A DNA stretch of 60,631 bases, counting the filler, from Hausera hauseri (lineage: Eukaryota), in assembly GCA_046269625.1 (NCBI GenBank). It is 11 parts of 11 records of this genome, joined end to end, with 100 filler letters (N's around TTAATTAATTAA, not from the genome) between each part and the next. Parts side by side here need not be neighbours in the genome. Positions count along the whole stretch, not along the records: positions 15,405 to 21,535 come from JBJURY010136095.1; 10 more parts are not named here. One strand, 5' to 3'. This document shows, one piece after another, positions 1 to 39,501 of the stretch (its first letter is position 1; the number at the start of each line of letters is the position of its first letter). The position numbers and the translations under genes were made by a program. Below the pieces are notes generated by a model. That model saw only the letters and a list, made by a program, of their open reading frames with translations. It did not search any database and was not told the origin of the DNA.

Positions 1-13
1 CGAAGACTGGGAA

Positions 14-3000
14 GTGTACGCGCTAATTGATACAGGATCAGAAAAATCGTTTATAAAATACGAATCGATACCAACCACATTGCGAGACCAGCTATGTCCA
101 CCCGCGTCATCGGACCCAGGCAGCATAGGAGCATTTGGACAAGTATCGAAGCCAAGATTTAAATGGACTCCTACCGTTTATATGATGGGACAAGCATTTC
201 CACATGAATTTGCGGTAATGGACCAATTGACAGACGATGTAGTATTGGGTTGTGATGTATTAAAACAGATACCAGGTATGGCAATTGATGTGCATAATGG
301 AAAATTAATTGAGCTCAAACCAATAAAAGGGACAAAAGTGATAAAGGAAAGGAAATCAGGCGAAGTATGGATTCCAGTAGATGAGGACATTCCACCTAGA
401 ACTGAAATGATAATTTTTGCACAAATTCGTCAAAATGAAGATCTACCGGTATATTTCGAACCGCAAGAGAATATTGATCCAAATCTCATGCTGAGTAACA
501 TCCTATGTAGAGTAGTAACGGGACGAATACCCATCAGATTAGTGAACAGTGCACCAACTTCCGTACAATTGCACGCTAACACTACTCTAGGTCACACTTG
601 TAGAGTATCAGCGATAACAGTTGAAGAAAAGCCATACAAATGCGCTGAATTTCCACCTCATGTTGAAACCAAATTCTCTCCCGAAGCGTATTGCAGGTTC
701 TACGAATTATTATGTAAGTACCGCTCAATAATTGCGCAAAAGGAAGAAGACAGGTAGAGCAAAGGCTCTAAAATTAATTATCCCGTTAAGGAAGAAACCA
801 GGCTCTAATGACGAGATCGATCTAGAGGAACAGAAAATGCCCAAATGGTATCCGCCTCCTCATTCATTCCAACCGGAGATAACTAAAGAAGTAGAGCGAA
901 TGTTGAAGGACGACATAATTCGACCAAGCTACCGATCATGGTACTCGCCTATACTGATGGTTAAAAAGAAAGGGACTACAAAACATAGGTTTTGTATAGA
1001 TTATCGGGCATTAAACGCGTTGATGATGAAAGACTCGTTCCCCTTACCGTCAGTAAAAGAAGCTTTAGATAGATTATCAGGAGCAAAATGGTTTACCACT
1101 CTCGACTTACAATCGGGGTACTGGCATGGAAATAGAAGAAGATTGATATAAGACAGCGTTTAAAACACACGATGGTGTATACGAATTTAATGTTATGTCT
1201 TTCGGTATCACCACCGGACCAGCTATCTTTACTAGAAAAATGAATAAGATGCTCATGGGGCTTGATCATGCTTTCGCGTACCTAGACGACGTGATGATAG
1301 CATCAAAAACAGAAGAAGAACATTTAAAAGACATGGAAGATACACTTATGCGATTAGAACAAGCCGGATTAAAACTAAATCCGAAGAAATGTAAATGGGC
1401 ACAGAATGCCGTCTCGTACCTCGGACATATAGTTGGAGAAGGAGGACCAAAACCGGATAAATCATTGCTAAACAAAATATCAGATTGTATGGAACCACAG
1501 AACCAAAAGGAGTTGAGGCATTGGTTAGGCCTGTGCGGGTATTATGCCACTTACGTACCAGACAACTCAAAAATCAATGCACCATTATATCGTTTACTCA
1601 AAAAGGGAACTAAGTGGAGATGGACAGAAGTGGAACAAAAAGCATTCGATGAAATGAAGAAAGTTCTGACAAGCGAACCAGTTTTAAGATATCCAGACTT
1701 TAACCTACCATTCATCATTAAAACAGATGCGAGCAAAGAAGGCATAGGATACGAATTAGCTCAAAAACGCGAAGACGAAGAATTAGAACATCCAATAGCT
1801 TATGGTGGACGCTCATTAAAGAAAGCAGAAAAGAATTATTCGGTTACCGAACTGGAGACATTGGCAGTTAAGGAAGCACTACGACACTTTAATGTCTATG
1901 TTTACGGACAGAAGATTATAATAGTGACGGATCACAAAGCAGTTACAACACTGAAAGGACGAGCTAATAACCCAACATGCAGATTAAACCGTTGGATCGA
2001 GGAAATCTTACGATATAATATTGAATTTCAATACAAACCGGGTAACAAACACGTCGACGCCGGCGCACTGTTAAGATTAAAAACGAAAACGAGTGCAATC
2101 ACTACATTAAAGAGACCACAATTTGAACAGCTGATTGAACGACAAAGAACTCTAATATCTGACAAGACGATTAGAATTATAGCTGAGCAGGCTAAAGATA
2201 CGGTTATTCAGCAAATTATCAAGTTCGTATAAAACGATAAAATACCAAAAGGACGACAACTAAAAAAGCATCTACAGAAACATGGACATAAATATCATGC
2301 AACGAATCGAGTCAATATTTTGTATTACGAGCGAAAAGGAAGAAGATTAATAGTTATTCCAAAAGGATTGAGCATAGAAGTACTTATGGCCGAGCACGAT
2401 TTGTATTTAGCCGGACATATGCCTTGGAAAAAGACATTGGAAAGGATATTAAATAAATATTATTGGCCAAGCATCGGTATTGATGTAAAGAATTTGGTAG
2501 GAGCGTGCGAAGTCTGCGCAACAAAACAAAAGAAAACAAAAGGCTACGTAGCAGAATTGAAACCCATAAACGTACCAGATAGACCTATGCAAGCCATGTC
2601 TATGGATATAGTAAGACCCTTGCCTAAAACTCACAAAAATAACAGATATATCTTGACATGTGTGGACCGACTAACGCATTTCGTAGAACTAGTGGCATTA
2701 TTAGATCAAAAGGTAGAAACTTGAGCTGACGCAGTAATAAGAAAAATCATCTGCAGATATGGACCACCAGAATAGATTTTAACAGATAGAAGAAGGAACT
2801 TCACAAGCGAATTATTCGAAAAAATGACCAAAATATTTGAAATTGAACGTTTAACCACTACCGCGTACCATCCCCAATGCAAAGGAATGGTCAAGCAGAT
2901 GAACGCAACAGTTATTCGGATATTATCAACAGTAGTGGCAAAGGACCAAAAGGATTGGGATGAATTCTTAGAAGGAACACAATTCGCGATTAATACGACT

Positions 3001-3398
3001 CCACATCCAGCAACAGGGTTTACACCATTTTTATGTATGGACAAGAGGCAATCTTATCTACTGATCTAGGCATGACGCCATACGAAAAGAACCTCGAAGA
3101 ATTAGAACAAAACTTTGCCGAAGTCTTACAGACAAGATTACAGAAATGTTGGAAAGATGCGAAAACATTATCACTTGAATACCAAGAAAAACTTAAAAAA
3201 CAATATAATAAAAAGACTAAATCTCATGGTCTGGAAAAGGGAAATTTGGTTTACATATATTACCCAGTTGCGAAAAAAGGTACATCCTTGAAATTAACAC
3301 GTACCGGAAGAGGACAATATGAAATTATCCGGACAACACCAGCTACGGTTTATGCGAATAAAATGGTAAAGAAAAAGTCGTATCGATTCAAAGAGTAA
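14..3398 (+). pseudogene. pol: Gypsy pol (PR, dUTPase-like spacer, RT, RNase H, IN), frameshifted
   Basis: ALIDTGS protease; WYSPILMVKKK..RFCIDYRALN, LDLQSGYW, YLDD RT; KTDASK..NYSVTELETLAV..TDHK RNase H; H..GH..CEVC, MDIV and GRGQY integrase. Split over six ORFs. Confidence 0.95.
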
Positions 3399-3399
3399 T

Positions 3400-4879
3400 T
3401 AAAACAGATATAAGGCCAGCTAAACAGTACAATCTAAGACCACGAGAAAACAAGACCTCGTCAATTATCACCAGACCGATATCATACATTCAAATAATCC
3501 TAGCACTATCAATAATCGCCTCTTATATTCCAAAAACACAAGCTGGATGGAGGCACGACGAAATCACATTAAAGAATGGATACGAAACGCAGAAGAATGA
3601 GATTGATAAAAGGGAAAAAAACTAATATTAGAAGAAACTCAAGGACAAAAAGATATCACGTCATTACAGTCAATCATAATTCAATATTATTCACAGAACT
3701 ATTCATGTGTGTGATTTACAATACAGAAGGCATATTACGATTCTGGAAGATTTCAAATTGACCTAGATGATATAATGACAAAAGCAACACGGCATTGTGA
3801 TTTCTGACATAGAGCGCACGCAATGTTGCAGCACGGAATTTGATCATACTTATAACGTTATCTATCTGCTATATTCATTAAAATTATCGGAAATCTATTA
3901 AGTAAAACCGCAATTTCAATTAGTTATTCCTGCTTGGAATAAGCATCATGGAATAAAGCCTAACGAAATGCTCCAATACATCGATCCAGTAAGGCGAATG
4001 CTGGAACAAAATATCGCCAGGATTTGGGAGAACCCCAGGAACAATTGCGTTCAAGTTAAAACAAAAGGACGACTAATAAACGGTCGAGTAATCTCGGTCC
4101 GGTTTCTGAAGGGAAACATACAAGCTCATAATCAACAATATTGCCAAATCGATGTCAAACAACCAATAATATGTTGCAAGTTACCACAGAAATATGAATA
4201 TAAAATTTAGCTAAATTTATACAAAATCAGAATCAACCAGTCGAGTATTTATTTAGGAAGCTACCGACTCAGAAATCCAGTTAAGTCGAATTTATTTAAT
4301 ATGACAACGAATGCGAAAATAAAGCCAACTATTCCGGCACTGATCAGAACTACTGCAGCGAATAAATCATCTCAAAAAGAACTAGAAATAATTCCAGTTA
4401 AATACTGGACGCAACAGCGTGAAATAACTTTTGTAGTAGAAAAAGCACTTAATTAAGACGTGAAGGTAAGCTGCCGAACATCCTATAATAATCAGAAAGT
4501 AATATTGACAAAAGCGAATGATCAAATCAAATGTACTTACTTGAACCCTGAAACGGATTATATTGTACAAATGGACGCAGAGAATAGACAAAATAAAACA
4601 TTCACGGTACGGACCTTAAATGAAATTGTTTCATTAAAATTATTAACCGATAACGAAGCGGAAGATGAAGTGACAACTACTGTTAAATTAAAACGTTTGA
4701 CCGAACAAACAATTTTGCCGTTAATATCGATTATTGGAACATCAATGTTCCCTCTCATAATCTTAATTGCGTTTTGTCGATTGATTACCAAAAACTGTTG
4801 TATTAAGCGACATAAAATTTATGAGAGGGAATTAAGGGTGATGGTACCACAGAATGAAATAAATGATGGAATATCCTGA
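3400..4879 (+). pseudogene. Post-integrase type I membrane protein (signal peptide, ectodomain, FN3-like domain, TM)
   Basis: ISYIQIILALSIIASYIPKTQAG at ~3476-3547; YCQI..IICCKL; FN3-like CTYLNPETDYIVQM; TM ILPLISIIGTSMFPLIILIAFC. Colinear with 18810-20160. Confidence 0.8.
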
Positions 4880-5379
4880 CAACGACAGATCAGGTTATTC
4901 CACTATCAAACAAAGAATTGGTTTAAATTTCGAACAATACTTTGTTTTAGGATTGATCCTTATTTTGTATTTTTTTCAGAATGGTAAGTACGAGCAGCCG
5001 ACCTAGAATCGACAATTTCTTACAATAGTATGGAACAGTTTTTATTCCGAAATCAAAAGGGATATACCGCCGAATTAATGATGCACTACGGACTGAAATA
5101 CATGTCGAATACCGAAAAGTAACTGACACCCAATGATCTAAAGGGTACTACCGAAGATAACCAAATGGTTTCACTATATGCAATGAGAGATAATCACCAG
5201 GCTAAGTCATATGACCTGAAAGAATTAATCCAGAGCAAAACGATCAGAATAGAAAATGTATTCATACACTTGGCAGACGGGGAAGTTTATTACAGAATTA
5301 AGAATCAACAATGGGACGGAAACGAAGGGCGCCAATATAGATTCAGTACGTTTAAAATAAGCGGACGAGGTCTAGAAAC
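4880..5379 (+). pseudogene. N-terminus of accessory ORF (PNDLKG domain), cut by contig end
   Basis: PNDLKGTTEDNQMVSLYAM..FIHLADGEVYYRIK aligns with D IPNNLKGTAEENRVARLYAM..FIHLVDGEI.YRLK. Confidence 0.7.
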
Positions 5380-6181: not shown

Positions 6182-6882
6182 AATGATGCCACTGAAATTC
6201 AGAAGAAACTTGAAGAGGAAAAAGTCAAGCGAACCCAGATGGAGAAAATATTTATTGAAGAAATCGAGCAAACTCGAAATAAAATGGTATGGATTCTTAG
6301 TAAAGATGGAAATTGAACATTATTTAGGAAAATAAAGAAATTAATTTAGGTACCTCATTGCAACAAAATTTTACTAGTGTCCGTGATGATATTTCCATGC
6401 GTAGGCCATTCGGAATTTCCCCAGTACACAACACTTCAAATAATGCATTCAATTGGCGTGTCGAACGAGTCAGTCGTAAATTATATCAGCATGAATACAG
6501 TCAGCCATTTTTCAGTGACAATAATAATGGATACAGAATGTGTTTGTATTTCAGCCTCAGTGTGTTATATGGTTTGCGTTTGACATTCCATCTGATGCAT
6601 GGGGAACATGACGATGAACTAATGTGGCCAATGCAGCGCGTTGTTTGTATACAAAGATTGGATGAGAAAACAGAATATCCGGTAATATCTGAACAATTCT
6701 GTAGGGCCACAGCGGCAAACCGAAATGGATTTAACAATGTGTCCGCGTACGATCGAACGAGTGACGTTAGAAACCTGTGTGGTGATGGATTTGTGGGTTT
6801 GAAATATGAAAAACTTGCAAAAACTGCGGGTGCCATGCGCAATGACACGATTGTTGTGCGGTGTCGTGTCTTACCTTTGTGA
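6182..6882 (+). CDS. TRAF-like protein: coiled-coil exon plus MATH/TRAF-C domain
   Basis: AFNWRVERVS..YSQPFFS..GYRMCL..FHLMHGEHDDELMWPM..NDTIVVRCRV is a TRAF-type MATH pattern. A putative exon at 6182-6286 (tttag..gtatgg) reads NDATEIQKKLEEEKVKRTQMEK. Exon phasing is unresolved. Confidence 0.8.
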
Positions 6883-8074: not shown

Positions 8075-8509
8075 TCATTTCAAGTTAGAAGTGATCAGAC
8101 GAATCCACAAAGTGTCATGGTCAAGAACACTAGTCATTTCCATAATTGATGGTACATCATTAATTACGTGAATACATTTATGGAGAAATGGTTTTGTCCA
8201 CTGGGAAGGATACGTACTGCTAGCTTGAGAAAACTGCAATTTCCAAAAAATCGAATTATTTTGTCTGTTCAAAATTTCTACTTCAATCGTAAGAGGCATC
8301 GGCCATTTCAGATAAAAATCAACTTGACTCATTTCAAGAAAGAATTCCATTGTCATTTTACTTGTAGGGTGTAACTGCATTGTGCAACTTAATGTGTATC
8401 CTTCGATGGTTTGGAAATAAGTGGATTTAATCCATTCCAATCCATTGGCAAATTTCTTTGAAAAGTCCAGTATTGGCCATATGAATGTGCTGTTGAAATG
8501 TGTAAGTAC
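8075..8509 (-). CDS. TRAF-like MATH domain, terminal exon
   Basis: Acceptor tttcag| then VLTHFNSTFIWPILDFSKK..STYFQTIEGYTL..LKWPM..HDTLWIRL, open to the stop at 8075. Confidence 0.75.
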   Translation of the reverse strand, partial: VLTHFNSTFIWPILDFSKKFANGLEWIKSTYFQTIEGYTLSCTMQLHPTSKMTMEFFLEMSQVDFYLKWPMPLTIEVEILNRQNNSIFWKLQFSQASSTYPSQWTKPFLHKCIHVINDVPSIMEMTSVLDHDTLWIRLITSNLK

Positions 8510-10000
8510 CTGAAAATATACATGTGTATCACGTATAATACATTGGTTTTTGCCTAGTGTTGCACGCAGGGTTGCCAGATGTCACGCATATTCTACGTAC
8601 TTGTACAGTATCGCCCAACATCACTTATTCATTTTATCTCCAATCTAAACATACTGATCGCAATTACCATAGTACAGTTGACAATATTGTGACATTATGA
8701 TTTAAAAATTGGCAATCCCTTTAATTTCCGTGTGAACAATCCTCCGATCAATCTTCAGTGCAATCCTTTAACAATCCTTACTGTTATCTGTGCTGACCTT
8801 ATGTGACAAATCCGTTATTTGTAATGTTTATGTACATTTTATGACCATTTTGTGATTTACGGGATTGTGCATGTCAGTTATGTTAAGACTTTTTCGTGTC
8901 ATGTACAAGTATAAATACCGTAGTCGTTTTTATTGTATCCAGACATTTTTCGTAGTCTACTATAGATTGAAAGTAACTGCTCTTGAATCTTCTTAGTGAT
9001 TACGTGAGTATTGTTTCTTTTATTACGAACTACTTTTGCTATAGTATTGTTATTACGTATGTTTTATTGCATTTCATTTATTTGTTTAGAATATATCTTA
9101 TTGTTGTCAGTATAATTTTTGGATTATTCTAAGTAACGTCAATAACTAATTAATCCTAAGTAAAGTTGGAATCCAGCCGTCTAGGTCAAACCTACCTAAC
9201 GGCAGCCTCAGTAAATTTAAGTAATCAGAGTCAAATAAATCATTAGTAAGTAAAGTTTACAGGAGCCCCACAGGCAGTAGTCCCCTACACATCACCTATA
9301 AGATAGAGCTAGGTAGGATAAACATTTGTCTGCAACTGTACAACTGCCACCATACGTACGACCTTGTTCAACCCATTAATTCAGTAAGTTACCAAAGTAA
9401 AGTCTCTCCCACCACAGAATTAAAGGGAACTGAACAATACATGACAAACTGAAACAGTACGATACTGCTGTTCCGTTCAAGTAAAACATACTAAACCAAT
9501 ACTCGATCGCTAGGTGACACACTGTTTAAAATTAAATTCATTTTGTTTGTGAGCTATAAAAACACGAGATTGAATATTAAATACAAGCCGCAACACTGGA
9601 AGGAGAAAACAAAACGTGTCAAAAATTTTACGAATGATGTTTATACGTGAGATAATGTAAATAAGTGCCATTCACTTTTGGGTTTACTGTACAAGTATGT
9701 AAAGATTCCGGATATTTCGTAGAATTTTATGTTGGTTAGTAATATGGAAAACATTTATGCAAACAAAACTAAGATTGTGTAATACGGGTTTCTAAATGTT
9801 ACGTCATTGTGCGCTTCTTCAGTTTTTCCCTTAATATGCAGAGGAATTTTAACATTTCATAAAAAATATCGTTTCTTTTTTTAGCAAATATTTTACTAGG
9901 ATTAGATTTCCCATTTTTAGTTCATGTTATATCAAAGTACAATGAATTCGACTAATTATCAGATACATCACTAATATTTCTTTCTTTTATATAAATATTA

Positions 10001-10180: not shown

Positions 10181-10812
10181 NNNNNNNNNNNNNNNNNNNN
10201 NNNNNNNNNNNNNNNNNNNNNNNNTTAATTAATTAANNNNNNNNNNNNNNNNNNNNNNNNNNNNNNNNNNNNNNNNNNNNAATAATCGATTATACGTTTT
10301 TGATCTCCTATTGCACATTTATTTTTGTCTATCAGTTGATTAATATCATTGTTTTTTGTGTGACGTTCGACTCAGATTATCGTTACTTTATTATTACTTT
10401 TCTTTATCCACACATTACCTTCTGTCTCTGACCGGCTACTTACTATTCGTAGTCGAATTCAAGATTTGGACAATTATCTATGGTATTTTGTAAATAAGAA
10501 TCTTATTTTGTCAAACTTCGTCGTTGCTACTTTTCTAATGACGATATGCATTCTGTTTTTGCTTATTACCCAGAAATTCAGAAAACTCTCAACTTGCCCG
10601 ACTTAGATTTTGTATTTTTGATTTGTGTACAATTCCGTTGTTTAAGTAATGTAAAAAAATTTTTTATAAGTTGTAGTTTTAAATAAAAATTGATTTTAGC
10701 CATCTTAAAATTGGAACTTTTATATTTTCTATCACCGATTAGTTTCATCGTGTTCGAAATTGGAATTTTCTTTATATTATCGTTTTCGAATCTATTTATT
10801 TTTGGAATTTCT

Positions 10813-10815
<3 letters not shown>

Positions 10816-10845
<30 letters not shown>
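10816..10845. repeat. (AT)n microsatellite
   Basis: About 15 AT units. Confidence 0.95.
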
Positions 10846-10847
<2 letters not shown>

Positions 10848-11819
10848 GGATACTCATCGGCAAGATTAATTATTCATTTGTTAGATCCTGAAATTGCAAA
10901 CAAAATCTCACATCTTTTGCACTGAATGAGCTTTCGGACAGCTGTCTTTCACTGTCAGTTTGGACTGCATGTTGAATAGTCAATTGTGTGATATGCGCTC
11001 TTTCAATAAAGTGAATTTCATAATACAGCAGTAAAATAACCATATTTCTCAGGAGTTCCAATTGACCCCAAAGAACAGTTCTCAAACTCTCGAGATCATA
11101 AAAAATCTTGAGTAGGAGGACTTTCTCATATTGCACATCTTTTCTTTAATTAAAATATGAAATAAAAAGGAATTGATGACTACGAACTGAAAAAAATAAC
11201 CATCTGAGTAATTACTTCAAAGTATATTTAAATCAGCTAATACACAAAATGGCTGTAAATAATCCAAAGTACGGCAATGAAAATTTTAATAACACCGCTC
11301 AAACAATTTTTTGTAGTCCGTTAATTCAGAGTTTTGATATGATTCTGAATTTTATATACTCACAAGTTCCCAAAGTTGGGTGAAGCTGATACACAACAAA
11401 TTTCCGCACTTATTCATTATTATGCACAAAATAAATTATTTTCATCAGAAAGTAATTTTTATTTTTAAAACCTGAAATCATCTATATATGTTTATCAATA
11501 TCAGATTCGGGCGATCAATTTACAAAGGAAATCAACAAATTCAGAACTGATCGAATCGTCTGAATCTGACAATTCTCGATCTGATACAGGTGTTTTACTT
11601 TTGTCCATTTGATACGTTTTTCGCTGATGACTCATTAATAATTTCATTCAAACTCTGCGTTTCATTAATAATGGAAACACTTGATCCTCTATTAATGATA
11701 AAGTATTTTGATAATTACTGTTAAAATCAGAATAATTCTGGTCTTTTACCGGTGATACATTTCTCAATAATTATTTAAAAGTCCATCTAAGGCCATCATT
11801 TTGTTTTGAACTACCAAAT

Positions 11820-12266
11820 TGTCAAATATCGTGAATAAACCGACGTTTAACTGTGGTCAATAGACATGTGAGAATTAACCAAAAAACAGTTGTAAATAAT
11901 ATCATAAATTATTTATTATTATCCATGAGAAAAACACATTTAATAAGTATTGTTTAAAGGAATACAGTGTGTTATAATGTAAATACTAGAACTAGAGTTA
12001 TCGTAATTCGAAAACAATTGTTTAAAAACCATGTAATTTGAGAAGTTAGATGAGATGAAACTACGGCAAAGTTCTGTAAATACTGAAGTAAACTGTCTTA
12101 AGGAATAGTTGTTTTTGATTCAGCCGATGTGAATAATACGAAGGTTGGAGAGCAAAGAAATAATTCCGAACTTGCCGGACATTTCCGATAACGTTATTTT
12201 CCGACGCTGAACGTCGTTGTGGTATTGTTTGAATATATTTATTGTTTTATTATATAATTTCTGACA
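11820..12266 (-). repeat. Candidate 3' LTR of element C
   Basis: On the minus strand a purine-rich AAGGGGCGACGGAAA precedes TGTCA...TGACA, with an internal TATTTA (~12080) and AATAAA (~11915). There is no second copy to confirm it. Confidence 0.35.
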
Positions 12267-13194
12267 TGGTTTCCGTCGCCCCTTAAAGGTAATTTGAGAT
12301 ACCCTAGAAATATAAAATTCGAGCAAAAATCTATAGATAAGTCGCGAATCATTAAAATTTGAATACGATTTGCAACCAGTACCAGCTTGCACCAAAATCA
12401 GGAATAATATGTTTAACGAGCACGTTAAACTGTTCAACCCTCACTAATTTACTTCTGGAGAGACTGTGACTTAACAATTGATTAATGAAGAGAACAATTA
12501 TCGTTTACTTTGTGAGTGAATGTACAGAGGCTTTGCTTGGACCTACCTATCCAATAATCGGTAATGTGTTTAGTGCAGACTCTATTTTAACACTTTATTT
12601 ACTAATGTTTACTCTCTTATTGTCTTAGTTAGGAATTAAACGGGCGGTCGTCAGGTAGAGTTAGACATGGTCGACCGAATACCAAAATTACTTAATGTTT
12701 ACTCACTTATTGACTTTACTTAAATAAATGAAAAAGTATCACACCAATGATATAATTTACAATACAATTAAAGTTGACAACCAAACAATAAAAATGAGCT
12801 TACATGTAGTCATGATGCAAGTAATAACACAAAAATTGTTCTAAACCAACCAGAAAAGCATTCTGCTTAAATAGTCAATGATAAAAACATAAAAATGTCC
12901 ATATTAGGACAACACGTCTAAATTAAAACAAAAACATGAAAATATTTACATTACACACAGCAGATAATTTTTGTTCCCTTTTTGTTACTCTCAAAAAGAA
13001 TCAATAGTCAGTAATATTGAAATAATCAGATATTTTTGTTACCAATTGAAATCAACGAATGAGATTAATAGTCAGTAATAGTGATATAGTCTGAAAAATC
13101 GACGACTGGTAATCTCACAAAAAGGATGGGGGGTTAAAGAAAATTGTCCCAAATTTTACGACAATAAGAAGATATACGACTGTCACTGATCCAA

Positions 13195-14605
13195 TTATAA
13201 AGGAATATGAATGAATTTGTCTGATGTTGTACTTTTATATCTTATTGACTCTGGCTCGTAGATTTCTCCATCGATGGTTACTATTTCATCTGTCTGGAAG
13301 TTCCTTTTCCTGCCAGAGGTTGGTGCTATTCGCACCTGTTCGGAAGCCGAAGTCTGTGTGATGATTTCATCAGTCCATTTCAGTTGTTTATATATGGCCT
13401 GGTAACATTGTACCAAGGCTGTACTTCGTCGTGGCATTCCACGAGTGTCGTAGAACTTCTTTGCCAACTCCCTTATAAGTACTGGTGGTTAATTGATACT
13501 TACGGATAGTCTCTTCGTGATAAAGGATATCACGAACTCCGGCTATCCGTCTGACTGGGCATTTGCAGTGATTGATCACCATCTGGAGTACGTTGGCTCC
13601 TATTATAATTTTATCAGTAAAAACTTCAGTGATTTTCCGATTAAATTTGTTCGTGTACAATTGGTTATTTATGTTGGATTCAGCCAGACCCGTGAGATGG
13701 GTGTCAAAATTGTTAATTCTTTGTCGTGGGGAAATGACGCTGTAGAAGAGTGTCTGTCCGTTTAACGTTATAACTGAGCATTCGATCTGTTGCATTTGAT
13801 TCCACTGGTCATAAGCTAAGTTAACGGCAGCTATGACCAGGTCTTCGTTTGTAATGTTTTGCATTCTTCTATAAGGAATCGTTTTGTATCGTACGTAATC
13901 AGGTTCTGGAAGGTGGAAGCATTTTCCTTCTGGGATCAACGGTTGAAAATTCTCGTGTTTGATTATTTCGAACGCAATCATTATACGGTTGGAAAGAGAC
14001 CGAATTTTTAGAATGTTGTCTTTTATGAATCGATACTCGAAGGCTAAGGCATGGTCGGGATCTATATTGATCAAATCTGCTTGTATGGAAGTTTTACGAC
14101 TTGTGATCTTTGTGTGAAATTTGCCGGCTACATTGTATATATTCATGGAATGGAATCTTTCTGCTAAGATTATCAGATCTTGGTGGTGGAAAGAAGTCGC
14201 CTTCGTTAATTGAATTAGGGCGAGAGATCTATTGCCCATACTGTATCCTTTGAGGTTGTTGGGAATTTGTGGTGTTTGGGGATAGTTCAAACTGTAGGTG
14301 TAATCATTGTTAGTCACATAATATTGATTGGTTGGGATAGCATTGATAAGATGCGTTTTCGCATTTGTAAACCAATGTTTTGATCGGGAGATTGATTGAA
14401 TTTGATGAGCTATCAAGGTTGATACTATAAAGAGAAATGTCAATCGCAAGTTAATATAGATATCTACACACAACACAACGGTTATCAGACACACAGTGGT
14501 AATCGTTATAGTTTTATAATTTAATTTATCATTATAGGTAACCTGATGACTAATGGTTATCTCTATTAAAAGGGTTGCATGAATAGCAATCCCTAGGCTC
14601 CACCG
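13195..14605 (-). CDS. Accessory ORF: IPNNLKG domain plus degenerate REX4/ISG20-like DEDDh exonuclease (one frameshift near 13470)
   Basis: CSVITLNGQTLFYSVISPRQRINNFDTHLTGL..ITEVFTDKIIIG..VRDI..KELAKKF..AIYKQL follows the REX4/ISG20 pattern. The ExoI DxE is replaced (VIAAVNL). Confidence 0.75.
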
Positions 14606-15304
14606 TCAGATGGGATTAGTAGTGGCTAACGGGTTCGTTAGCTCGCGTAAGTTGATTGGTTCCAAGCTTTGTTTCTTTTTGCGTCGTTGTTGTTGTATCA
14701 CCTTGACTAATATCACTGCTATTATCACTACCACTATAGGGGTTATTGAACATATTATGATTATTTCTAGGCGGGAATGCTTATATCCTGTTCCTAATGG
14801 CTTATTAGTTGTTTTATTTTTAACGGTATTTAATCTGTATGTTGATTCCACTCTGTTACCTTTTGTGATTGCGGACATTACTTTTGTAGAGTTTATTTTA
14901 TCGCGGGTATCTAATAATTGTAGCATAATCGTATATTTCGTATCAGTCTCTAAAGCCGCACACGGCACTATCAGATCATCAGGAGTTATAACTCCTTTTG
15001 CTACTATGGTGTCTTGTTTTTTACAAGTAAATTTAATTTTTACGAAGTCAAAGTCTGGCTTAACAGAGATGATTAGTGCCGTGGGAGCTGCTATGATAGT
15101 TACGTTATCCCATATGGAACGTTTTTGACGGTAGTAAGAAGCGTAAGGCTTAATTAGAACAGTCATCTCTTTATTATCAGCTGAGAGTTGCATAGGTGTT
15201 GCCGTGGTCCCTTCTCGTGTATCATCGTACTCTTTTTGATTCTTATATCGTATAAACATTGTCGGTCCTGTTCTATGCCTTTTATTTTTAAGCTTTCCGT
15301 GTTC
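14606..15304 (-). CDS. Type I membrane protein with FN3-like domain (element C), N-terminus cut by contig end
   Basis: CAALETDTKYTIMLQ; TM IIIICSITPIVVVIIAVILVKVI followed by RRKKK. Same position and architecture as in A and D. Confidence 0.75.
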   Translation of the reverse strand, partial: EHGKLKNKRHRTGPTMFIRYKNQKEYDDTREGTTATPMQLSADNKEMTVLIKPYASYYRQKRSIWDNVTIIAAPTALIISVKPDFDFVKIKFTCKKQDTIVAKGVITPDDLIVPCAALETDTKYTIMLQLLDTRDKINSTKVMSAITKGNRVESTYRLNTVKNKTTNKPLGTGYKHSRLEIIIICSITPIVVVIIAVILVKVIQQQRRKKKQSLEPINLRELTNPLATTNPI

Positions 15305-15669
15305 NNNNNNNNNNNNNNNNNNNNNNNNNNNNNNNNNNNNNNNNNNNNTTAATTAATTAANNNNNNNNNNNNNNNNNNNNNNNNNNNNNNNNNNNNNNNN
15401 NNNNACAAATGTCTGGTGACTTTCCGCACGCATCGCGTGACCAATCACGTGTCGCACGTGACGCGTAGGCGGATCACGTGATGCGTGGGTGGACCCCCCC
15501 TTGTCCCAGACTCCTCTTTTTTCCCCTACTCACATATTTATATATGGGGCCTTATATCCCAATTTTTATACTCTCGTTAATCCAATTTATTGTTGTTGGT
15601 GCGCTAATCGCGGGTATGTAGTTTAATTAACTCTCGGCTGAAGTATAGTCTAGCGAGATACAAACTGTT

Positions 15670-15684
15670 CTGCTAGGGTCGCCA
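15670..15684 (-). promoter_or_regulatory. Primer binding site (tRNA-Arg-like)
   Basis: TGGCGACCCTAGCAG begins 2 nt after the LTR end TAACA and is complementary to a tRNA 3' end ..GGGUCG-CCA. Confidence 0.75.
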
Positions 15685-15686
15685 AA

Positions 15687-16464
15687 TGTTATATTTTGGG
15701 ATGGGCCCTAATCGTCTCCCGCTATATAACAATAAGTTAATACAAATTTAATTTATAGCAGGTACGGTTTACCGTTCTCGGTAAATTAGGATGTACCTTT
15801 TAGTTTTATAACGTTAACGAATGCAGGTACTGCGTGCAATGTGCGTGAAACAATTTACTTCAAATCTCTCCTATCTATATAATTTACGTCAGAAGTTTGG
15901 TTCTTAATGTAGTCATAATTGATCTTAAGGATCGATGAGAAACTATATAGGAAATTAAGTCAAATTCAACGAATAAAAATATAATTGATACCAATAGTAA
16001 TAATACTGATTGATCCTTGTGATCACTGACTGTTAACCTCGAGAAGTCTCTTCAAAATTTCGGTATCGCAACGTCTTCAACTTGTCAAATTAACACGTCT
16101 GCAATTTCTTCGTGACGTTTGGCACAGGATTCTAACTCCGAAGTTTCTCCGAAAATTTTCCTGAAAGTTCTGATTTATTCTAAAATTCGTTCGCTATATA
16201 TACTGGTAGTTTCCGATGATTACATCATTTTCACTTATTATTTACATATTAAATTTCATTATTTCAATTATCTAATATTGTAATCGATTACTATTCATTC
16301 CTTCAGATTTTCCTAATTCCAGATATGCCGAAAATTTCACATAAATCATTAAGATTTCGAATTAAATAACAAATAACATTTACATTAATATTCTGAACTA
16401 ATTTATTACAGTACACCTAATAACTACTATCGTAATATACTTCTATTATGTATATTCCCTAATA
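15687..16464 (-). repeat. LTR (~778 bp)
   Basis: TATTA (for TGTTA)...TAACA termini, bracketed by PPT and PBS; TATATATAG at ~16195-16203 and AATAAA at ~16175. Confidence 0.78.
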
Positions 16465-16476
16465 TTTCTCCTCCCT
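16465..16476 (-). promoter_or_regulatory. Polypurine tract
   Basis: AGGGAGGAGAAA lies directly before the LTR, ~50 nt after the RING ORF stop. Confidence 0.78.
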
Positions 16477-16524
16477 GAGCGACACCTCGTATGTGCCTAT
16501 TGTGTCAGGATAGGTGGCGCCTAA

Positions 16525-17061
16525 TTAATGCCGACGCAGTAGTTCCAGTCTACTCCGGAGTCTACTGTCATCGACTGGATTCGCCTCCAGCATATACTTA
16601 GTGCTGGGTTGGTTCTGGATGGGAAGAGATCTATTACATTCACCATTCGAGAAGTACTTTAAACCATTTGCCTCGGCTCGACATACGGGGCATGTAGTTT
16701 TCCCATTATCCAAAGTCCACGTCTCAAGACATGTACGACAATATTTGTGCCGGCATTCTTGATTATCCAATTTGACGTATTCCTACCATATACTTTCCTT
16801 ACAGACTAGGCAAATGTCTTCATCTTCATTCGTGTTTTCATCATCCAGGTCTATTTTAGGTATAATTCGGATTCTCTCAAGTACTAGTCCGTCTTGATCG
16901 GAATACAGATAAGCATATAGATCCTTTAGTTGGATGTTGATTGAGCTTTTTCTAGGGTCGTAATTCACGAGGACCAATGTCCAATCCATAATGGTTTCAT
17001 TGTCTAAATCAGAGTTCTCACCTTTCTTTTGGTATGTCTCGTATTGCTTTTTAAACATCAA
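16525..17061 (-). pseudogene. C3HC4 RING-finger (E3 ligase-like) domain carried by the element
   Basis: ORFs 16783-17061 and 16525-16770 are in one frame across a single TAG: ICLVCKESIW*EYVKLDNQECRHKYCRTCLETWTLDNGKTTCPVCR. Confidence 0.88.
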
Positions 17062-18809
17062 TTTGATTTGATTGTTTACAGAGACAGATAACTTACCAGT
17101 TCTTTTTTATTTAAATATGGGAGCTAGGTATTTCACTATCTCGGAATTCTCCCAAGCATATGCTCCATCTGGGATTTCTCGTATTTTAGCACTTTTACGT
17201 AAAATATCGCTTTCTTTATCTTCTGATGACTGCAATACTCAGCGATCACCAGTAACCTGGGAAAATCTTTATTTGTCGAAAAGTGGACGTTTTTCTCCGA
17301 TCTTTTCTTTTTTAAAACATATCTGTGAAGACTATGTCATTTTCGGATTTCCTACTTGGGGTTTGGGTTCTAATCTTCCTTGTTTTTTCTTCAGAATGTA
17401 TCGCCTCCGTTCTATTCGGGGTTTTTGTGTTTTCAGATCCCTTTTCTGTTGTTTTTATTTCGTTTCGGATCTCTGTCCTTTCGGGGTTCTGTTTTATTTC
17501 AATTATTTTCCGCTTATTTTTTCCCCTATTTTTCTTTTTGAAAAGGTAATTTCCTTTTTCCAGTGAACAATGTAGTGTCTATTTTACCCTCTTTATTCTT
17601 TTCCGTGGCTTTAGGTACTTTAAACGTTTCTTGATTTTTGTTTTTGTGTTTTGTTGAGTCTAAATTGCAATTTCGACTGGTACTGAGTTTATTTTCTATT
17701 CCTCTTGTCGCTGTGACGGCTTCTGATTCGGTCTTCAGAATAGTAACTTGATAACCATCTCCTGGTATTGGTTCGACAGTTCTAATGGGGGTATAAGGCC
17801 TTAAATGCCTTCTGTGCTTGGAACTTAATCCTTCTTGATTGGTCGAACTTCGTAAATTTTGTCCAGGGTTGTCAGGAGCCAATTCATGCTCTCACTTAAG
17901 TCCTGCATATATGTTTCGTAAGTATTGTGAGCGTTGGCTTACCGTCAGCAGTCGGCTTATCCGAACATGTTCTCCGTTCATTGCTTCTAACATAAACTTA
18001 AATCGACCTTCTACGGTCAGTGGTAGATAGCCATTTCTTCTTCGATCAGTTTGCTTTATCTGTTCCATTACTACAGGATGAATCTCTATTTCCCATAGTT
18101 TACGAATATGATCCTCGGATTCCTATCATCCTGTACTAATCGAAAAGAGTGTAGGTGATCATCTCGATCCTTTTCGGTAGGTTGTTGAATGAACCGTAAG
18201 GGTGGTATTTGAATAAATGGTGCGTTTTCGTAGCATACTTCGATCATGAGTTTAACTGGTAATGCGGCAACTCGGAATTCTATTTCACACTTAGTGGTGG
18301 AAGTCCCCACTGTTGATTAGGAAGGTACTATATCGGTGTTGACGCCCTTGGGAAAAATCCCAGGCTTGTTCCTTCAATCTATATTAAATCTCTCCATCCA
18401 CCAAATGAATAAATGTATTCTGGTGGTAGACCGGTTCATATTGTACCAACTATCGTAACGCATATGCTCATGCGTCCTTGTCTTCTCTCATCGCGTACAA
18501 TCGCGCTACCCTATTTTCTTCCGCAGTTCCTTTCAAATTGTTTGGGATCTCGCTGGTTTGTTTATACTCTATAAAATTCTTTCCTTGTAATTTATTGTTA
18601 ATTTGCCGAAATATTGATTTGGACTGAGGGATTAGTACTGTTGCACAGTTCTGTAAGAAATCGTTAATACTACGTCGAGTTTTTCCTGGATTCATCTGAG
18701 TACTTACCATTCTAAAAGATAAACAATAAGGGTTAATCTTATGACAAAGTATGGTTTTGAACCAAAACCAATTCTTTGTTAAATGATAGAATAACCCGAT
18801 CTGTAATAG
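17062..18809 (-). pseudogene. Accessory ORF (IPNNLKG domain plus Lys-rich linker) upstream of the RING
   Basis: Fragmented ORFs 18468-18710, 18086-18310 and 17526-17882; N-terminal homology to A and C. Confidence 0.6.
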
Positions 18810-20160
18810 TCAGGTTATTTTATCATAAACGTATTCTTGGTGTTCCAATACTCTTAATTCCCGTTCTATGATTTTAGGGCGCTTAGTTTGGTAATTTATG
18901 GTAACTAATCGAAATATAGCGATATATAATATCAGCACAAGCGTTGACAGGCTTACGATCATTACTATGGGTAATGTAGTTAACTCTTCGGGTTTTGTAG
19001 TCGTTATCTCTGTAGTGATTTCCTGTCTTGTGTTTTTGTTTGCATGTGGTGCTATTTGTATTTCTTCTAGGATTTGTACTTCGAAGGTTCGGCTCTGTAG
19101 GTCTTTTTCATGCATTTGTATTATGTATTCTGTCTTTGGTACTAATGAGTTGCATTCGGTGTGGTATGTGCCTTTCAATAAAGTTTTTATATTCTTATAC
19201 CTCGTGCGGCAATTTATTTCGACATTATAGTTGAGCTTCTCTTCCACCGAAAATATTATTTTGCGTTGCTGTGTCCAGCACTTTACAGGGATCTTAAGTA
19301 ATTTCTTTTTGTTCATCTTCTTTGTCGTAGTAAGCCTAACAGTAGTGCTTACTGGGACAGTCCGTCTCGTCGTCGTTGTTTCAGTCGCAATTTTCCAGAT
19401 TCTACTGTCCGGATAATATCTTCCTAAATAAGGGCTCGATTTATTTATTTGAATTCCATAGAGGTCAATATGAATCCTATATTTATAACCTTCTGAGATT
19501 TTACAACAGATCCTAAGATCTTTGTTCTTGATGCTACAGTAATTGGGAGTTGGACTTAACTCGTTTATTTTAGTAAATTGCATTGAGATCTGGTTGTTTG
19601 GCAATCTTGCCTTTGTATCTATTTGAATACACTTGTTTTTCTTATCTTCGGAAATATCAACTATGTTTTCATTCAATGCCCATTTAATGGGGTCGGTTGA
19701 CTGTACTGTCACCGAACTCCGTTGCATTGATCTGTTCTTTGACGGGTATTACTAGTTTTACTTGCGGTCTTATCGCTCCTTGGGTGCGTTCGTAGTTTTT
19801 ATAGTACATTCGTATTGTGAAGGTATACGTTTTTCCATAATTTATGACTCAACATCTTTCTCGAGCTCCATACGGAAAATCGCAATGGGTCATTACTCGT
19901 TTATTTCTGTTCCATAGAACTTCTTGGTATTTCACTGATTTTCTCACGGTTCCGTCCGTCTTAAATAGCACACAGTCCCATCTTGGATCTATACTTTGGA
20001 CCTCGAATTGATCTAAGGTGCTTAAGTCATTTCTTTTTGTTCTTATCAATTCATCCTTCATCCATTTGTTTAGTTATTGAATCAATCCTCCTTGTGCCTT
20101 GGTTTTTGGAATATATGAAGCTATCAATGATAGTGCTAAGACTATCTGTATGTAAGACAT
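18810..20160 (-). CDS. Post-integrase type I membrane glycoprotein (signal peptide, ectodomain, Thr-rich stalk, FN3-like domain, TM, Tyr tail); 5' part disrupted
   Basis: MSYIQIVLALSLIASYIPKTKAQ; 305-aa ORF with TETTTTRRTVPVSTT, CNSLVPKTEYIIQM, TM LPIVMIVSLSTLVLILYIAIF and tail EYVYDKI. Confidence 0.82.
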
Positions 20161-21535
20161 GTGTCTGGTAAGTATAGACGAGGTCTTGGCTTTCCTGTGT
20201 TTCGTTTTCTTGTTCGCTTTTGTATCTTTTACACGTAATTGATGTCGTTTACTTGGTCTTATCTCTGTTTTCACCACTCGCTGTATTGACACGACGTCTT
20301 CCGTTTTTATTAATCTAAACTGCAGTGGGTGTTATTCTGATAACTTCGTATGGTCCTCTTCCAGTACGCGTGAGTTTTAACGATGTGCCCTTTTTAGCTA
20401 CGGAGTAATGCACATAGATCCTATCTCCGATTTTTAAATCGTGCGGTTTCGTCTTGTCGTATTGTTTTTTAAATCCTTGGTATTCCATGGAGAGCGTCTT
20501 CGCTACCTCCCAACATTTTTGCAGCCTAACCTGTAAAACGTCTACAAAATTTGGTTCTAGTTCCTCGAGAATTGCTTCATACAGAATAATTCCTAAGTCC
20601 GTAGGTAATGCTGCTTCTCGACCATACATCATGAAGAATGGTGTAAATCCCGACGCGGGGTGTGGTGTTGTATTGATGGCAAACTGTGTACCCTCTAAGA
20701 ATTCGTCCCAATCCTTTTGATCTTTCGCGACTACGGTTGACAATATTCGTATTACAGTAGCATTCATACGCTCAACCATTCCATTACATTGGGGATGATA
20801 AGCTGTCATAGTTAACCCCTCGATTTCGAATATTTTCGTAATTTTATCGAATAGTTCGCTGGTGAAGTTTCTCCCTCGATTAGTTAGTATTTTATCGGGC
20901 GGTCCGTATCTACAGATAATTTTCCTTACCACGGCTTCGGCTAATGTTTCTGCTCTTTGATCATATAGCGCTATTAACTCTACAAAGTGAGTTAAACTAT
21001 CGACGCATGTTAGTATATATTTGTTATTCTTGTGCGCCGTAGGTAGTGATCTTAAAATGTCGATTGACATGGTTTGCATTGGCCTGTCCGGTACAGCTAT
21101 TGGTTTCAACTCTGTCATGTAATTTCGCATTTTTTTCTGTTTAGTTGCACATACTTCGCAAGGGTTTACCCAATTATTCACATTAATATATGTACTAAGC
21201 CAATAGTATTTGTTTACCGCTCTATCTAGCGTCTTCTTCCAAGACATGTATCCTGCTAAATACAAATCGTGTTCGGCCATTAACACTTCAGTTCGCAAAA
21301 TTTTGGGTATAACTACTAACTTTCTTCCTTTTCGTTTATAATACAAAAACTTTTTCACTGTCTTTGTTCTCTGAGACATAATATTTATGCCCATGTCGTT
21401 GTAAATGTTTCTTTAACTGGTGCCCTTTTGGTAACACGTCTATTTCGGCATATTCAATGATTTGTTGGATAACTCGATCCTTCTTTTGTTCGTTTGAAAT
21501 TTTGATTGCTCCGTCTGACACTAAAGTTCGTTGTC
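20161..21535 (-). pseudogene. pol: Gypsy integrase
   Basis: CEVC, SIDIL, LTNRGRNF, TAYHPQCNGMVERMN, GRGPY. Confidence 0.95.
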
Positions 21536-31676: not shown

Positions 31677-34600
31677 ACACCACAATAAGGCCACATTGCT
31701 TTCGTTCTCGGGGTGGGAATAGTGAATCCGTAATAAGGTCACAATGCCACACCACAATAAGGCCACATTGCTCTAGTTCTCGGGGTGGTAATAGTGAATC
31801 CGTAATAAGGTCACAATGCCTTTGTTCTGGGGGTAAGAAGAGTGAAACCACAATAAGGCCACATTGCTTTTGTTCTCGGGGTGGTAATAGTGAATCCGTA
31901 ATAAGGCCACAATGCTTTTGTTCTCGGGGTGGGAAGAGTGAAACCGTAATAAGGCCAATATGATTTGTGCACAGGGTGGCAATAGTGAAACAGTAAAAAA
32001 GAAACAATGCTTTTCTTCTCAGGAATGGATTAATGAAACCACAATAAGGCCACAATGCTTTTGTTCTCGGGGAGCGAATAGTGAAACCACAATAAGGCCA
32101 CATTACTTTTGTTCTCGGGGTGGGAAGAGTGAAACCACAATAAGGCCACATTACTTTTGTTCTCGGGGTGGGAATAGTGAATCGGTAATAACGTCACAAT
32201 GCCTTTGTTCTCGGGGTGGGAATAGTGAAACCATAATAAGGCCACAGTTCTTTGTTCTCGGGGAGCGAATAGTGAAACCACAATAAGGCCACATTGCTTT
32301 CGTTCTCGGGGTGGGAATAGTGAAACCACAATAAGGCCACATTACTTTTGTTCTCGGACTGGGAACAGGGAATCGGAAATAAGGTCACAATGCCTTTGTT
32401 CTCAGGGTGGGAAGAGTGAAACCACAATAAGGCCACATTGCTTTGTTCTTGGGGTGGTAATAGTGAATCCGTAATTAGGTCACAATGCCTTTTTTCTCGC
32501 GGTGGGAAGAGTGAAACCACAATAAGGCCACATAATTTTTGTTCTCGGGGTGGGAATAGGGAATCGGAAATAAGGTCACAATGCCTTTGTTCTCGGGGTG
32601 GGAAGAGTGAAACCACAATAAGGCCACATTACTTTTGTTCTCGGAGTGAGAATAGTGAATCGGTAATAACGTCACAATGCCTTTGTTCTCGGGGTGGGAA
32701 TAGTGAAACCAAAATAAGGCCACATTGCTTTCGTTCTCGGGGTGGGAATAGTGAAACCACAATAAGGCCACATAACTTTTGTTCTCGGGGTGGGAATAGG
32801 GAATCCGTAATTAGGTCATAATGCCACACCACAATAAGGCCACATTGCTTTCGTTCTCGGGGTGGGAATAGTGAATCCGTAATAAGGTCACAATGCCACA
32901 CCGATATAAGGCCACATTGCTCTAGTTCTCGGGGTGGGAATAGTGAATCCGTAATAAGGTCACAATGCATTTTTTCTGGGGGTAAGAAGAGTGAAACCAC
33001 AATAAGGCCGCATTGCTTTTGTTCTCGGGGTGGTAATAGTGAATCCGTAATAAGGTCACAATGCCTTTGTTCTCGAGGAGGGAATAGTGAAACCGTAATA
33101 AGGCCACAATGCTTTTGTTCTCATGGTGGGATAAATGAAACAGTAATAAGGCCAATATGATTTGTGCACAGGGTGGGAATAGTGAAACAATAAAAAAGAA
33201 ACAATGCTTTTATTCTCGGGAAGGAATTAGTTAAACCACAATAAGGTCACAATGCTTTTGTTCTTGGGGAGCGAATATTGAAACCACAATAAGGCCACAT
33301 TCCTTTTGTTCTCGGGGCGGGAATAGTGAATCGGTAATAACGTCACAATGCCTTTGTTCTCGGGAGGGAAAAGTGAAACCATAATAAGGCTACAGTTCTT
33401 TGCTTTCGGGGATAGAATAGTGAAAGCATAAGAAGGCAACAATGCTTTACTTCTCGGGGTGGAAAGAGTTAATCCATAATAAGGCCACAATGACTTGTTC
33501 TCCGGGCGGGAATAGTGAAACCATAATAAGGACGCAATGTTTTTGTTTTCGGAGTGGGAAGAGTGAATTAATAATAATGCCGCAATATCTTTGTTCTCAG
33601 GGAGTGAATAGCGAAACCATTATAAGGCCACAGTGCTTTTGATTCCGCGGTGGCAGTAGTTAAACCATAGTAAGGCCACAATGATTTGTTCTCGGTGAGG
33701 GAATATTGAAACCATAAAAGGGCCACACTGTTTTGTTCGCGGGGAAGGAATAGTGAAACAATAATAAAGAAACAATTCTTTTCTTCTGGTTCATGGATAA
33801 GTGAAACCATAATAAGGCCGCAATGCTTTTGTTATCGCGATGGGAAGAGTGAAATCATAATAAGGCCACACTGCTTTTCTTCTGGTTAATGGATAAGTGA
33901 AACCATAATAAGGCCACAATGCTTTTATTCTTGGGGTGGGAAGAGTGCAATCATAATAAGTTTACAATGTATTTGTACTATTGGTGGGAAGAGTGAAACC
34001 GTAATAAGGCCACATTGCTTTTTCCTCGGGGAGGGAATAGTGAAACCATAATGAGGCCACCGTTCTTTGTTCTCGGAGATAGAATAGTGCTTTTGTTCTC
34101 AAAGTGGGAATATCGAATCAGTAACAAGGCCACAATGCTTTTGTTCTCGGGGTGGGAAAAGTGAGACAATAATAAGGCCACAATGCTTTTTTTCTCGGGG
34201 TGGGAATAACGAATCGGTAACAAGGCCACCATGTTTTTGTTCTCGTGTTGGGAAGAGCGAAACCATAATAAGGCCACAGTTCATTTATTCTCGGGTCGGG
34301 AATAGCGAATCAATAACGAGGGCACAATGTTTTTAATCTCAGGGTGGGAACAGTGAATCCGTACGAAGGTCACAATGCTTTTGTTCTCGGTGTGGGAACA
34401 GTGTAACCGTAAGAAGGTCACAGTGCTCTTGTTCTTGGGGTTGGAATAGTGAAACCATAATTAGGCCACAACGATTTGTTCTCGGGGTGGTAATAGTGAA
34501 ACCATAATATGGCCACAGTGTTTTTATTTTCGAGGTGTAAATAATGATACCATGAAAATTCCACAATGCTTTACTTCTCGGGGTAGGAACAGTAAATCCA

Positions 34601-39044: not shown

Positions 39045-39144
39045 NNNNNNNNNNNNNNNNNNNNNNNNNNNNNNNNNNNNNNNNNNNNTTAATTAATTAA
39101 NNNNNNNNNNNNNNNNNNNNNNNNNNNNNNNNNNNNNNNNNNNN

Positions 39145-39360
39145 TGTTTTGGTTTCAGTAACAGTCTTGTTGTACGTTATTTTCATACTACCTTTCAATG
39201 TCACCGGTGCGTAGGGAAAGTCAAATTCCGTCAGTGCAACCTCCCATTTTCCAACAGATAAATCCAAAGGATTGTTCCAATCTACAACGTATTCACTGGC
39301 TAAATTGTTTGGACGAGTTGTCGGACAACTGTTGCTCGGCAACACCATGTAAATACTCAT
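39145..39360 (-). CDS. Penton/minor capsid-like protein 2, N-terminus
   Basis: IYMVLPSNSC..PNN..Y..PLDL..GKWEVALTEFDFP, the Polinton/adintovirus penton N-terminal motif. Confidence 0.72.
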
Positions 39361-39501
39361 GATCTCGATGATGATGATGATTATCGTGATGATGCCAGAA
39401 TCCAGTTCGATAGAAGCCAGAAGTTGTTTACGTTCTCCACCAACGAGTACGGATTTGGTTAAATTCGTTACAATGTTGATTCGGTAAAATGCTCCATAGA
39501 G

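Follow-up and report, generated by a model that had tools for sequence, protein, structure and literature searches.

How is a reading frame expressed that lies directly behind the stop codon of another, in the same frame? The question is raised by a group of decayed retroelements in Hausera hauseri, where the original prediction placed a leaky UGA-C stop between a membrane protein and a cytosolic effector. The window (the whole stretch of DNA analysed, 60,631 nt) consists of 12 contigs with N spacers between them, and contigs A, C, D, E, and F carry decayed Ty3/gypsy pieces with RT, RNase H, and integrase domains. The domain order in these decayed Burro-like elements is integrase, FN3-like membrane ORF, UGA-C, and ORF3; the membrane ORF/ORF3 junction is present in A, C, and D only, on contigs 4-7 kb long in which the 5' ends of A, C, and D are missing. 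Since A and D form one lineage and C a second, only two independent junctions are available in the window. Copy F is tied to A and D via pol stretches that are 70-80% identical. GPCR and TRAF/MATH genes elsewhere in the window point to an animal source. The three contigs with the junction are:

1-5379, plus strand: copy A contig
10281-15304, minus strand: copy C contig
15405-21535, minus strand: copy D contig

The proteins on either side of the junction

18810..20163, minus strand: copy D membrane ORF, broken, with an FN3-like ectodomain and a tail ending Y-D-K-I-T
20163-20089, minus strand: copy D signal-like stretch, in frame with the integrase tail
18968-18909, minus strand: copy D transmembrane (TM) segment
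14606..15304, minus strand: end of the copy C membrane ORF, truncated at the contig end, with a membrane-proximal domain, TM, and tail
14764-14702, minus strand: copy C TM segment
16663..18710, minus strand: copy D ORF3, broken, with the shared N-terminal domain, an exonuclease-like domain, and a RING
16824-16663, minus strand: copy D C-terminal RING
13388..14401, minus strand: conserved part of copy C ORF3, exonuclease-like, with a frameshift close to its end
56082-55344: Monjiviricetes-type fusion glycoprotein fragments (PF24664), copy F

The anatomy proposed for the locus, i.e. ectodomain, TM segment, and effector, was borne out: predicted FN3-like folds, a TM segment, and RING and exonuclease-like domains were all found. 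In the model of the relative P0002 (pLDDT 56), three beta-sandwich domains are seen together with a signal-like helix and a single TM helix; the PDB matches listed for it, the best with E 1e-9, are proteins with FN3 domains, as are those of the weaker model of D, and among the matches listed from a viral structure library most are FN3/Ig-like or unnamed proteins. The Env fusogens of the F and gB kinds are surveyed in PMC13524379, and an Errantivirus-type Env would carry such a fusogen fold behind pol; the listed PDB matches of the protein found there, from a model of pLDDT 56, are FN3 proteins. On these models the membrane protein, with its three predicted FN3-like domains, is receptor-like and not an F or gB Env fusogen. 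Pfam holds no family for the membrane ORF, a word-based protein search with the D membrane ORF gave 0 of 580 candidates, and scans of viral contigs with the D membrane ORF and the C ORF3 gave no relatives. The PF24664 fusion glycoprotein was detected in 2 of 15 fragments scanned, both in copy F and upstream of a protease-like region, i.e. copy F has the env-like region between gag and pol that marks Burro-like elements.

In all four copies with the integrase boundary (A, D, E, and F; 20163-20089, 44624-43995, 51302-51006) the integrase tail continues in frame into the signal-like stretch, and the receptor-like protein is therefore probably cut from the Pol polyprotein. At its other end, the tail before the stop has identical length in 4/4 D-type proteins (D, A, P0002, and P0004), and it ends Y-x-x-I-T right before the stop in D (18827-18813), P0002, and P0004, the tails of A and C being without Tyr. 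This Y-x-x-I end we take to resemble tyrosine sorting signals.

The effector had been described as an E3 ligase or a pseudo-nuclease, as if two kinds were present; sequence comparison instead groups the ORF3s of A, C, and D as one family, in which a common N-terminal domain goes with an exonuclease-like domain; the D type has a RING in addition. Copy D ORF3 has 4 stops within its first 140 codons and frameshifts further on, and its relative P0005 is intact, with the RING; copy C ORF3 is 59% identical to P0001 from codon 69, with no RING seen. The exonuclease-like domain matches ISG20L2 (E 5e-6), its first acidic motif appears to be replaced, and Pfam has no family for the N-terminal domain.

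These relatives come from a search of 1.84 billion protein representatives with copy D read through and its stops set to X, which returned four matches, two per side (P0002 and P0004 for the membrane protein, P0003 and P0005 for ORF3); a query with C ORF3 added P0001. No protein spanning the junction occurs among the four D-query matches or the three ORF3-alignment matches, and the ORF3 alignment search found only the same three relatives among 7997 scored proteins. P0004 and P0005 are probably from one element, because they have a longest contig of 16,242 nt in common. The relatives are protein records only, with starts set by a gene caller.

The stop codon, its context, and the frame behind it

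18810..18812, minus strand: copy D UGA, followed by CTA-TTA
4877..4879, plus strand: copy A UGA, followed by CAA-CGA
14606..14608, minus strand: copy C UGA, followed by CGG-TGG
18711..18809, minus strand: copy D 33-codon linker, open in the frame of the stop
14402..14605, minus strand: copy C 68-codon hydrophobic linker, open in the frame of the stop

The membrane ORF does end in UGA-C at each junction, as had been described (TGA-CTA at 18812-18807 in D, TGA-CGG at 14608-14603 in C, and TGA-CAA at 4877-4882 in A); this holds for 3/3 junctions and for both lineages, between which the membrane proteins share 23% identity. TGA makes up 2173 of the 6701 stop-type triplets in the window and is followed by C in 407 of 2172 cases; the chance of UGA-C is therefore about 0.06 per lineage. 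Type II readthrough signals, as described in two sources (PMC3542737, PMC13517186), combine UGA, a CUA or CGG right after it, and an extended stem that starts about 8 nt further on (8-13 nt); type I is the motif CARYYA, which works on all stops, and UGA-C is leaky by itself. CUA or CGG stands right after the stop in C and D and not in A; the type I motif is matched at 5 of 6 places by both CAA-CGA of A and CTA-TTA of D and has no match in C, i.e. the full motif is absent from these three copies.

The contexts had been called alphavirus-type, and this stands for the presence of CTA and CGG in D and C; it does not extend to most contigs related to D, since at position 18808 copy A's base is read by 105 contigs of run X1 with 67,306 of the 67,501 depth (in a listing of 40 of 1651 rows), and D's CUA is thus probably private to copy D. 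In the same run, the bin that contains the stop reaches a summed depth of 18,553, compared with 169 and 479 for its two neighbours; run X1 consists of contigs, is possibly the window's own source, and has a summed depth that is not a copy number. Among sequencing runs, X1 was the one listed as containing the sequence, with none from RNA, and its joints give no information on splicing. By the depth spike, the sequence round the stop is much more widely shared than that on either side, and the junction is a real cis-element.

Behind the stop, copy D has the 33 open codons that had been described, ending at the ATG at 18710 (102 nt), and in C the frame stays open for 405 codons, codon 38 being the GTG that leads into the 368-aa ORF and codon 123 the first in-frame ATG. 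Copy A had been taken as in frame apart from one extra T, which does not hold: its stop-to-ATG distance is 104 nt against 102 in D, i.e. two bases more with the difference in a T-rich tract, and relative to the stop its ATG at 4981 is shifted two bases out of frame, the frame being kept in C and D. Frame 0 is free of stops across the linker in 3/3 copies, with stops in the other two frames numbering 1 and 3 in D (32 codons), 0 and 3 in A, and 11 and 6 in C (60 codons). In shuffles, the probability of an open frame is 0.08 for D (33 codons) and 0.009 for C (60 codons); upstream of the branch-point-like site alone, it is 0.13 for D (codons 1-25), 0.12 for A, and 0.015 for C (codons 1-52).

That the post-stop peptide is conserved with synonymous changes proved to be incorrect: the 31 post-stop codons compared between A and D comprise 15 identical, 2 synonymous, and 14 non-synonymous ones. 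Changes in the A/D linker fall at codon positions 1/2/3 in the ratio 10/9/5, against 19/15/27 in the 50 codons before the stop (13 synonymous, 27 non-synonymous), so that third positions take 5 of 24 changes (P 0.015 versus the upstream rate). Two synonymous codons among 16 changed ones are still tolerable (P 0.28 at an assumed neutral rate of 0.22), and a linker under RNA constraint need not show a synonymous signature. The conservation of the A/D linker is at the nucleotide level, with an identity of 0.78 and 0.74 in the first two 50-nt windows after the stop, compared with 0.44-0.66 across the last 1200 nt of the membrane ORF and up to 0.82 in pol windows. Copy A is damaged elsewhere, having 2 stops in its last 325 membrane codons plus frameshifts. 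The hydropathy maximum of the linker in D and A (0.6-0.8) does not amount to a TM segment, and for this reason the ORF3 of D and A would be cytosolic; the 35-residue hydrophobic run in the linker of C would need two membrane crossings.

The relatives bear on the frame as well. All three ORF3 relatives (P0001, P0003, and P0005) begin upstream of the conserved domain, and the extensions of P0003 and P0005 fit frame 0 best (P0003 versus D, p 0.010, and versus A, 0.063; P0005 versus A, 0.019, and versus D, 0.59); of the 12 comparisons made in all, the 8 with other frames each gave p > 0.2. P0003 and P0005 carry Leu and Lys at the place of D's Met; P0003, P0005, and D each have a later Met just before the conserved domain.

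A splice-acceptor-like site and two exclusive predicted stems

18712..18736, minus strand: copy D branch-point-like pentamer, pyrimidine tract, and AG (predicted acceptor)
4953..4989, plus strand: copy A branch-point-like pentamer, pyrimidine tract, AG (4978-4979), ATG (4981), and GTAAGT
14426-14425, minus strand: copy C acceptor-like AG
18702..18710, minus strand: copy D ORF3 ATG, overlapping a donor-like GTAAGT
18783..18826, minus strand: predicted hairpin H1 of copy D, common to A, 17 pairs, with the UGA atop its 5' arm
18731..18796, minus strand: predicted extended stem S1 of copy D, starting at +16/+17, its 3' arm being the branch-point-like stretch
4863..4958, plus strand: predicted H1 (4863-4906) and S1 (4893-4958) of copy A
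4863..5006, plus strand: 47-codon ORF of copy A, running over the stop in the +1 frame

The end of the linker has the makings of a spliced third ORF, namely a branch point, a pyrimidine tract, and a YAG, in A and D, and in weaker form in C. On a first score the linker AG ranks 1 of 437 in D, 1 of 360 in A, and 1 of 256 in C; across five scores, all of them crude, home-made, and devised after the sites had been seen, the ranks are 1, 1, 2, 1, and 1 of 437 (D), 1 of 360 (A, tied under two), and 1, 7, 2, 5, and 3 of 256 (C). AGs are few in these linkers (4 in D and 5 in A). The two extra bases of A lie on the intron side of the AG, and A and D are the same for 12 nt behind it. In C the exon phase is unlike that of A/D, and behind its AG the next ATGs are out of frame until codon 123. 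No upstream donor was identified in A, C, or D, whose 5' ends are missing.

Could the tract be a by-product of hydrophobic linker codons in an RNA that is never spliced, with ORF3 made by readthrough only? Synonymous shuffling does reproduce the tract of C (P 0.23), which is thus explained by its peptide, and P0003 and P0005 do not keep the Met of D; in D and A, however, the tracts exceed what the peptide needs (P 0.004 and 0.010) with AG-ATG directly behind them, and ORF3 would be made merely as a small fraction of a long polyprotein. We regard this explanation as quite unlikely.

Three other splicing arrangements were rejected. Taken as a branch point, CTGAC over the stop is too near to or too far from any good AG; CAG at +10, taken as an acceptor, has no pyrimidine tract; and spliced-leader trans-splicing, a process of flatworms, does not fit the exon phases as the source of an AUG. 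Four nt behind the AG there is a donor-like GTAAGT (18707-18702 in D, 4984-4989 in A), possibly delimiting a 4-nt micro-exon or acting as a splice regulator; at its place P0003 and P0005 keep Val-Ser and do not keep the Met.

Folding of the post-stop RNA had been suggested as a check: taken alone, the sequence is unusual in D only (z -2.5; A -0.15; C -0.76), and A and D together share the predicted S1 at +16/+17. S1 has one compensatory pair and a consensus energy of -10.6, which is reached in 5 of 210 background windows and in none of 300 column shuffles. H1 covers positions -14 to +29 relative to the U; in A and D, 31 of 34 cells are paired and one pair is compensatory. None of 246 background windows equals the consensus energy of H1, and 1 of 300 shuffles does. 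The stem windows were chosen after looking and the background windows overlap; in shuffles, the compensatory pairs recur in 244 and 246 of 500, two sequences having no statistical power on covariation. Because the 3' arm of H1 is the 5' arm of S1, the two stems are mutually exclusive, and in H1 of both A and D the UGA pairs with its complement. Copy C has a short predicted hairpin from +15 (14594-14571, minus strand), and Rfam returned two weak hairpin matches, far below the gathering score.

The depth spike, the H1 background, the acceptor ranks, and the open-frame probabilities together speak against chance and decay, by which the open frames and contexts would be coincidences in two lineages picked in hindsight; the small number of independent junctions and the choice of features after looking lend that explanation some weight, and we hold it to be scarcely credible.

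The 47-codon ORF of copy A invites another explanation, a small overlapping membrane protein made in the +1 frame by termination-reinitiation at an ATG 14 nt before the stop. This ATG is at -14 in both A and D, the 47 codons are intact in A, and the changes by codon position in this frame (9/5/10) look more coding-like; the position bias is nevertheless not significant (chi-square p 0.42), the ORF has two stops in D and the +1 frame of C has 11, the relatives fit frame 0 and not +1, the hydrophobic half is simply the pyrimidine tract, and the ATG is a by-product of the Y-D codons and the H1 stem. Such a protein is accordingly very unlikely. The ORF was also compared with the FAST-like sORF2 proteins, of 63-107 aa with a myristoylation motif (PMC11952523), and that identification was dropped, as the 47-codon ORF is shorter and without the motif. 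A scan of metagenome DNA for the linker motif gave 3 matches, all unrelated by blastn and tblastx.

The main rival is that ORF3 is spliced and nothing more, behind an ordinary stop that is fixed by the sorting motif and the H1 pairing, with the stems tuning the use of the acceptor. It would account for the acceptor ranks in D and A, for an A/D linker without a coding signature, and for the Y-x-x-I-T ends of D, P0002, and P0004; the frame of A would need no excuse, and pairing of the UGA in H1 of A and D would conserve the stop without readthrough. Third ORFs of LTR elements are, moreover, typically spliced (PMC5408684). It leaves unexplained why the would-be intron is stop-free and in frame (P 0.015 in C, 0.13 in D, and the extensions of 3/3 relatives), and it sits poorly with C, which has no usable ATG behind its AG and an exon phase different from that of A/D. 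On this balance we consider splicing by itself rather unlikely.

Proposed dual use of the junction and its relatives among known systems

Both routes are favoured because splicing alone misses the open in-frame linkers and readthrough alone misses the pyrimidine excess of A and D. We accordingly give an even chance to a dual-use junction, from which ORF3 would be made free by splicing and tethered to the membrane by a leaky stop; taken in total, splicing in some form is likely, and readthrough in some form somewhat favoured. As a candidate, then, the readthrough that had been predicted remains plausible: it has gained S1, the tail length constant in 4/4 proteins, and the extensions of the relatives, and it has lost the frame of A and the synonymous changes, the acceptor having been overlooked.

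For the dual-use junction, the following course of events may be proposed. The membrane protein would be cut out of the Pol polyprotein by signal peptidase. The predicted acceptor before ORF3 would give a subgenomic RNA and from it the free ORF3 protein; on unspliced RNA most ribosomes would stop, making the FN3 membrane protein with its Y-x-x-I sorting-like end the main product, and perhaps a few percent would pass the UGA-C, aided by S1, and yield an FN3-TM-ORF3 fusion at the membrane. Once a ribosome stands on the stop, H1 would melt, and its 3' arm would become available for S1, the candidate stimulator, to form; H1 would leave the branch point free for splicing and S1 would cover it. That a ribosome-flipped RNA switch over the stop couples splicing and readthrough in this way, with the pseudo-exonuclease-RING either free or the tail of an FN3 receptor-like protein, i.e. 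an element-encoded receptor-E3 ligase formed by recoding, is a speculative proposal to which we attach a low probability.

Among known signals the junction is plausibly a candidate of the type II-like kind. It shares with alphavirus nsP3/4 and coltivirus VP9' the UGA-C (CGG in C, CUA in D), a predicted stem at +15 to +17, and an open frame downstream; the stem starts at +16 in Sindbis and +12 in VEEV (PMC13517186 Table 1). It differs in its variable triplet, which is CAA in A and, judged by one position, in most X1 contigs; in a stem that is rich in A and U and has a hairpin over the stop as its competitor; and in the acceptor-like site within the linker.

Retroelement readthrough is established for gag-pol. 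A precedent for pol-env readthrough is SIRE1 (a Sirevirus, Ty1/copia), likewise an LTR retrotransposon, whose env-like ORF behind pol is proposed to be reached via a leaky stop (as stated in PMC2829016); in contrast, the present elements are animal Ty3/gypsy, and their stop ends a membrane protein, whose tail would gain a cytosolic module by readthrough. The planarian giant Ty3/gypsy elements Burro and GYPSM1 resemble them in a fusion glycoprotein upstream of the protease (copy F), a long polyprotein, and ubiquitin-related accessory domains, although an FN3 membrane protein behind integrase, an exonuclease-RING ORF, and readthrough are not described in the passages of PMC6431247 (section 7) that were covered. 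The bdelloid elements Juno and Vesta also have an exonuclease-like third ORF behind pol, expected to be spliced, and their DEDDy ORF3 keeps its catalytic residues (PMC5408684). In the present family, by contrast, the first acidic motif seems to have been replaced, the D type ends in an additional RING, and ORF3 is preceded in frame by a membrane ORF with UGA-C.

In the literature searched, an exonuclease-RING ORF behind a leaky stop that ends an FN3 membrane ORF was not reported; subscription papers, Repbase entries, or supplements may describe one. Nor did the papers that were found include a non-fusogenic FN3 membrane protein in frame behind integrase. If the proposal is true, it would be a new use of readthrough, in which an exonuclease-like/RING module is appended to an FN3 receptor-like tail, and the transposon would have a candidate for a membrane-bound ubiquitin ligase. 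Membrane-bound ubiquitin ligases are used by some DNA viruses against host surface proteins. The junction comprises about 110 nt and is directly testable.

Several other features of the window were recorded. Two convergent TRAF/MATH-domain ORFs lie at 6328-6882 and 8075-8581, and Burro elements carry MATH domains. An uninterrupted rhodopsin-family GPCR ORF at 57503-58444 is a host gene, and a long tandem array with a period of 48 nt extends over about 31700-39000. An adjacent ORF pair at 39097-40227, one of which was scanned and had no Pfam match, has a W-E-V-A-L motif in each member that presumably recalls the minor capsid proteins of Polintons/adintoviruses.
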